Part shown: piece after piece, positions 3,387-4,379 of the stretch | How the letters are laid out: every line of letters starts with the position of its first letter | Numbering within the stretch: position 1 is the stretch's first letter | DNA from: Escherichia coli | GTDB lineage: Bacteria; Pseudomonadota; Gammaproteobacteria; Enterobacterales; Enterobacteriaceae | Length of the DNA stretch: 64,000 nt | Assembly: GCF_002854065.1 (NCBI RefSeq) | Contig: NZ_CP024147.1 | Direction: 5' to 3' (one strand) | The notes under the pieces: generated by a model | The model's database searches: none | Told to the model about the DNA's origin: nothing | Seen by the model: only the letters and a program-made list of their open reading frames with translations | Translations under genes and position numbers: made by a program

Positions 3387-4379
<993 letters not shown>

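Follow-up and report, generated by a model that had tools for sequence, protein, structure and literature searches.

Organisation of the aphA locus

The window, by which we mean the whole 64-kb stretch of Escherichia coli DNA analysed here, carries the aphA reading frame for a class B acid phosphatase/phosphotransferase within the gene order tyrB - aphA - yjbQ - yjbR - uvrA, the same locus as that of E. coli K-12 AphA (PDB 1N8N, 2B82; HAD subfamily IIIB, PF03767). The frame is interrupted by an in-frame amber codon, and its features are collected in Table 1 together with those of the other genes and elements discussed below.

Table 1. Coordinates of aphA, its interrupted reading frame and other features of the window.
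Feature	Position in window	Strand	Details or basis
tyrB-aphA intergenic region	2560-3660		18-bp indel at ~3164
Open reading frame in the tyrB-aphA spacer	2779-3303	-	open for 174 codons
aphA reading frame, class B acid phosphatase/phosphotransferase	3666..4379	+	237 codons and a stop codon; pseudogene
aphA start codon ATG	3666	+	reading frame and sequence
aphA translated part, 179 codons	3666..4202	+	ORF list, sequence
aphA signal peptide, codons 1-25		+	mature chain of PDB 1N8N begins at residue 26
aphA first Asp pair, D69/D71	3870-3872, 3876-3878	+	motif FDIDDT; upstream of TAG
aphA Thr137 and Lys177		+	sequence; both in the translated part
Premature amber TAG, codon 180	4203..4205	+	wild type TGG
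Open untranslated remainder of aphA, 57 codons	4206..4376	+	sequence
aphA second Asp pair, D192 / D196, in GDSDND	4239-4241 / 4251-4253	+	downstream of TAG
Normal aphA stop TGA	4377..4379	+	sequence
Terminator-like hairpin	4385-4407, T-rich tail to 4417	+	10 pairs, 7 of them G-C; consensus scan
IS1 (IS1B family), first copy	16002-16769		768 bp
espX5-like fragment	16812-17354	-	split by the second IS1 copy
IS1 (IS1B family), second copy	17400-18167		768 bp; identical to the first copy, same orientation
espX5-like fragment	18141-18881	-	split by the second IS1 copy
fdhF, formate dehydrogenase H	32506-34653	-	in-frame TGA at 34234-34236, codon 140, selenocysteine
786-codon open reading frame	48955-51315	+	annotation differs among relatives

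The assignment of the gene to the class B acid phosphatases (HAD IIIB / DDDD superfamily) is borne out by full-length homology and by its conserved chromosomal position. With Trp restored at codon 180, the translation gives an alignment with E=5e-144 to PDB entry 1N8N ('Class B acid phosphatase') that covers residues 26-237, and Pfam PF03767 is assigned to the 179-residue aphA product. Compared with the crystallised K-12 protein over these same residues, the differences are a Ser/Asn polymorphism at position 161 and the stop at position 180.

The lesion itself is a G-to-A transition at window position 4204, which turns Trp180 of the precursor (Trp155 of the mature protein) into an amber codon. 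A preliminary description of this DNA had proposed that the codon of a conserved Trp had changed from TGG to the nonsense codon TAG, and had recommended comparison with aphA of related strains; this comparison bears the proposal out, since codon 180 is TGG in the wild-type relatives TR01 and 88-3493 (a 131-base alignment in which, besides codon 180, two haplotype SNPs differ) and a Trp occupies the aligned position in the crystallised E. coli AphA chain (PDB 1N8N). The sequence also agrees with its statement that the frame remains intact through the C-terminal 57 residues to the normal TGA: ...GQNTKSQ precedes the TAG, and 57 residues ending in ...VIVNSEY follow it with no further stop, identical at the protein level to those of wild-type TR01. 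Apart from this in-frame stop, at a codon that is sense in intact orthologues, the gene is collinear with them.

The stretch from 3177 to 3915, which covers the upstream region and the start of the gene, shows no differences from wild-type TR01, and transcription and translation initiation are thus probably unaltered. At the other end, aphA is followed by a terminator-like hairpin that lies just 3' of the gene; judging from this arrangement, aphA is probably monocistronic, so that little polarity on yjbQ would be expected.

Strains differ greatly in the intergenic region between tyrB and aphA, where many SNPs occur in addition to the indel given in Table 1. The annotation of the open reading frame in this spacer also varies by genome: it appears as yjbS (67 aa), as a 128-aa hypothetical protein or as 'frameshifted'.

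The truncated product lacks the second aspartate pair

Structure papers on AphA (Calderone et al.) reportedly give D44, D46, T112, K152, D167 and D171, in mature numbering, as the catalytic residues. With the offset of 25 residues between precursor and mature numbering given by the alignment with PDB 1N8N, these correspond exactly to D69, D71, T137, K177, D192 and D196 of the precursor. The stop at codon 180 falls between the two Asp pairs, with D69/D71 upstream and D192/D196 downstream, and both pairs are consequently never found in one translated polypeptide. Class B acid phosphatases rely on two absolutely conserved, essential Asp pairs, which constitute the DDDD motif (PMC8475336). Unlike K-12 AphA, the product encoded in the window ends before codon 180 and is left without the last 57 residues and the second of these pairs; it retains motifs I-III and lacks motif IV. 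Because D192/D196 are gone, the truncated AphA should be inactive, as far as can be judged from its sequence, and the fragment is probably unstable and degraded. Loss of the periplasmic class B acid phosphatase, one of the two outcomes that the preliminary description had considered, is hence what the removal of the second Asp pair predicts, and RefSeq/PGAP flags the allele as a pseudogene.

Distribution of the TAG allele

We searched 5,426 complete E. coli genomes with a 40-mer probe centred on the A of the TAG, for which megablast seeds match only with this A present. The allele was found in three of them: strain 100416 (NZ_CM128593.1; human stool, Gambia), strain CUWW06 (NZ_CP182139.1; wastewater, Thailand) and strain PCP06171 (NZ_CM129872.1; seawater, Galapagos). 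The TAG stands at the identical codon in all three, and RefSeq/PGAP lists each of these aphA genes among the pseudogenes, with the remark 'internal stop'. Across its first 8,450 bases the window shows 100% identity to 100416; over the whole 64 kb, what separates the two is 17 mismatches, two gaps of one base each and two IS1 insertions, the latter being additional copies in the window strain. In the 851 bases around aphA, the window, 100416 and CUWW06 are the same. The window strain is a further isolate of the 100416/CUWW06 clone, deposited as a separate record. In PCP06171 the TAG sits on another aphA haplotype, which differs from that of the window at 7 further places in the gene, the nearest of them 47 bases upstream and 58 bases downstream of the TAG.

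Beyond the complete genomes, the exact 179-residue product in the Ser161 form found in the window occurs on 155 public contigs (NCBI, JGI/IMG, Logan, ENA), with the same gene neighbourhood in 23 of the 23 such contigs that were read, and its Asn161 form occurs on 184 contigs. The 2018 NCBI draft GCA_003291745.1 and strain KTE107 are among the sources of the truncated product. A common functional protein allele is present on at least 1000 contigs; the window allele differs from it by the codon-180 base alone and shows no other damage in the gene. The suggestion that the loss is recent can accordingly be kept in evolutionary terms, this base being the sole difference from a common functional protein allele, but not in the sense of an event private to one strain, given its fixation in a clone sampled in Gambia and Thailand and its presence on 155 contigs. 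The TAG allele is already on public record, annotated as a pseudogene, and is nothing new in kind.

If the TAG were an artefact of sequencing or base calling, for instance a systematic long-read error by CTGCAG, aphA would be intact. A CTGCAG palindrome, which may be a methylation motif, does lie 2 nt downstream of the changed base, and the same change on the unrelated haplotype of PCP06171 is a pattern that systematic error could make. However, nearly all other genomes have TGG beside the same CTGCAG, with only three matching the TAG probe; the base is shared by three distinct isolates, namely the window strain, 100416 and CUWW06; and the truncated product recurs on the 155 contigs of the window haplotype and the 184 of the Asn161 form, drawn from NCBI, ENA, Logan and JGI. 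Sequencing error, which had been named at the outset as the finding that would refute the nonsense change, is ruled out by this identical allele in many independent assemblies, and we judge an artefact to be extremely improbable.

Amber suppression and recoding

An amber-suppressor tRNA (supE, supF or similar) reading the TAG would produce full-length AphA with another residue at position 180, and the preliminary description had raised expression by this route as its second outcome. The perfectly intact downstream frame of aphA is what lends this idea its appeal, together with the existence of amber suppressors in E. coli. We therefore assembled probes from the 40-base anticodon arms of glnV, glnU, tyrT, serU, leuX, trpT and lysT, covering ten suppressor anticodon variants in concatenated form, namely the eight classical alleles supE, supB, supF, supC, supD, supP, supU and supG and two double-change variants. 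The tRNA sequences behind these probes are validated by the control matches of the wild-type probes, which hit 5,425 of the 5,426 genomes at a median of 15 places each.

Suppressor probes matched 159 of the 5,426 complete genomes (99 of them unlisted), and every match listed is supE44 (glnV CUA). C600, DH5alpha and DH1 served as positive controls for supE44, and J53 was also among the matches listed; the supE44 matches listed are laboratory K-12 derivatives or their descendants. Some of the supE44 records among the matches listed carry the host labels 'mouse gut', 'chicken' or 'Homo sapiens'.

When the suppressor probes were combined in one query with 55-base probes for all single-base aphA nonsense changes, 189 genomes matched, each at a maximum of one place, so that no genome has both an aphA nonsense change and a suppressor allele of the panel. 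Within these 5,426 complete genomes, none of the 30 with an aphA nonsense allele, 100416, CUWW06 and PCP06171 included, carries a suppressor allele of the panel. Moreover, no tRNA gene was found within the 64-kb window, and in other lineages codon 180 has been knocked out by TGA (opal), which an amber suppressor is unable to read. Expression via suppression is not supported by the near-identical sister genomes, which have neither supE nor supF nor any other panel allele, and for the window strain, of which the 64 kb were covered, we attach only a minute probability to it.

Two forms of recoding were considered and rejected as well: codon reassignment, because TAG terminates soxS normally in the same region, and programmed recoding or readthrough, because >99.8% of E. 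coli genomes lack the stop and have TGG instead. Of the 56 genes annotated in this region, only one other than aphA contains an in-frame stop, namely fdhF with its expected selenocysteine TGA, which is conserved and contrasts with the aphA TAG in the same window. With no suppressor match in the sister genomes, a TAG that ends soxS and a window free of tRNA genes, the evidence speaks against readthrough of codon 180 on any regular basis, although natural low-level readthrough of UAG could yield traces of full-length AphA. The 57 undamaged downstream codons fit a young pseudogene; taken alone, they would equally fit use by readthrough.

Nonsense alleles elsewhere in aphA

The retrieval of contigs by the 179-residue products is biased toward codon 180, and two unbiased surveys were then made. 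Probing the 5,426 complete E. coli genomes for each of the 66 single-base substitutions that create a stop in aphA revealed nonsense alleles in 30 (0.55%), spread over 11 codons. Codon 180 (W180*) accounts for seven genomes, three with TAG and four with TGA, followed by codons 6 (Q6*; six genomes), 223 (Q223*; four), 43 (Q43*) and 174 (Q174*) with three each and 178 (S178*) with two, whereas W48*, E93*, W102*, K116* and Q121* were each found in one genome. The putative Q121* carrier, CFSAN018748, matched across two probe segments at 89% identity and was counted as Q121*. A look-up of public contigs with the exact truncated products for 13 other transition-accessible codons found W82* on 37 contigs, W102* on 76 (including Shigella flexneri), W109* on 26, Q121* on 25, Q174* on 58, Q179* on 30, Q182* on 20, R187* on 14 and Q223* on 127. 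The codon-180 TGA was also seen in draft assemblies retrieved by the Asn161 form of the 179-residue product. These other E. coli and Shigella alleles are, like that of the window, single-base premature stops, and they differ from it in codon or stop triplet and in lineage. In a different lineage again, host-restricted Salmonella Typhimurium DT2, aphA is likewise listed in the table of pseudogenes (PMC3760250).

The six genomes with Q6* (TA8571, XD35, W409, GDSC2239PM, A65EC and 3PT) have a CAG-to-TAG change at codon 6, which belongs to the signal peptide. Their aphA is nevertheless called 'intact' by PGAP, as the 230-residue WP_123000301.1 with a start 21 nt downstream. In such a product the signal peptide would be seven residues shorter at its N-terminal end, so that export has probably been lost without the annotation showing it.

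The counts at codon 180 raise the question of whether stops are favoured at this codon, be it by a mutational hotspot or by selection of the AphA(1-179) fragment, a view under which the allele would be adaptive. Codon 180 contributes 7 of the 30 nonsense-carrying complete genomes and tops the contig counts of the truncations looked up (155 + 184, against 14-127 for the others). Furthermore, when 21 further carrier loci were grouped by local haplotype over 1.58 kb, the codon-180 stops fell on four local haplotypes, two with TAG and two with TGA, so that the number of such backgrounds is at least four. However, contig counts mirror clonal sampling rather than numbers of events. Counted as minimal independent origins by haplotype in the complete genomes, codon 180 accounts for 3 of 12 transition-type origins, and in simulations with equal rates over the 19 transition routes some codon reached at least three origins in 67% of runs, so that the observed figure does not exceed chance. 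The dispersal of nonsense alleles over 11 codons is what general loss of function predicts. Deamination at a Dcm site was rejected as a cause, since the mutated C on the complementary strand does not lie in such a site (CCWGG).

The codon-180 excess is thus not significant, and the complete-genome origins and the simulation provide no evidence for a hotspot or for a selected truncation. We regard a preferred or adaptive codon 180 as very unlikely, and there is a similarly slim chance that its recurrence (at least four independent origins) has been favoured by a hotspot or by selection for a dead AphA(1-179). Were this so, AphA(1-179), with its motifs I-III, might retain the ability to bind nucleotides or might poison the tetramer. 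The pattern as a whole is consistent with occasional loss of a gene under weak constraint.

Other features of the window

Each of the two IS1 copies is flanked by a 9-bp target duplication, TCTCTTTTA and ATTGGCTCT, and both copies are absent from the near-identical strain 100416. The second copy splits espX5, which resembles genes for T3SS effectors, into two open reading frames, making espX5 a second and strain-specific case of gene inactivation.

The counterpart of the 786-codon open reading frame is annotated only as an 'ATP-binding protein' (754 aa) in 100416, but in CUWW06 and other relatives it bears the name 'hybrid sensor histidine kinase/response regulator'. Part of the clone may have a truncated or otherwise changed form of this gene.

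Interpretation and significance

We conclude that aphA in this strain is very probably a nonsense-mutation pseudogene, tolerated and brought to fixation in a single clone by drift or hitch-hiking. The sequence of events would have begun with a spontaneous G-to-A change at 4204 that turned the TGG of Trp180 into the amber TAG. With the upstream region and start codon unaltered, aphA is probably still transcribed and translated, and with standard E. coli decoding the chain would be terminated at codon 180 by release factor 1. Cleavage of the signal peptide would then leave a periplasmic fragment of 154 residues that possesses the nucleophile Asp pair D69/D71 and Lys177, and that, for want of D192/D196, is expected to be inactive and probably degraded. 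The nonsense alleles found elsewhere in E. coli and Shigella and the DT2 pseudogene indicate that loss of the gene is tolerated. AphA is dispensable, and the mutation probably reached fixation as a neutral or near-neutral change, by drift or hitch-hiking, in the clone that includes 100416, CUWW06 and the window's own strain.

The TAG allele marks one E. coli clone as deprived of a dispensable periplasmic nucleotidase/acid phosphatase, a finding of limited significance, and it could serve as a lineage marker. Since ~0.55% of complete genomes carry a nonsense allele, and these alleles are distributed over 11 codons, aphA is under weak purifying selection in E. coli, and some of its nonsense alleles, such as Q6*, are masked in annotation by a start codon shifted downstream.
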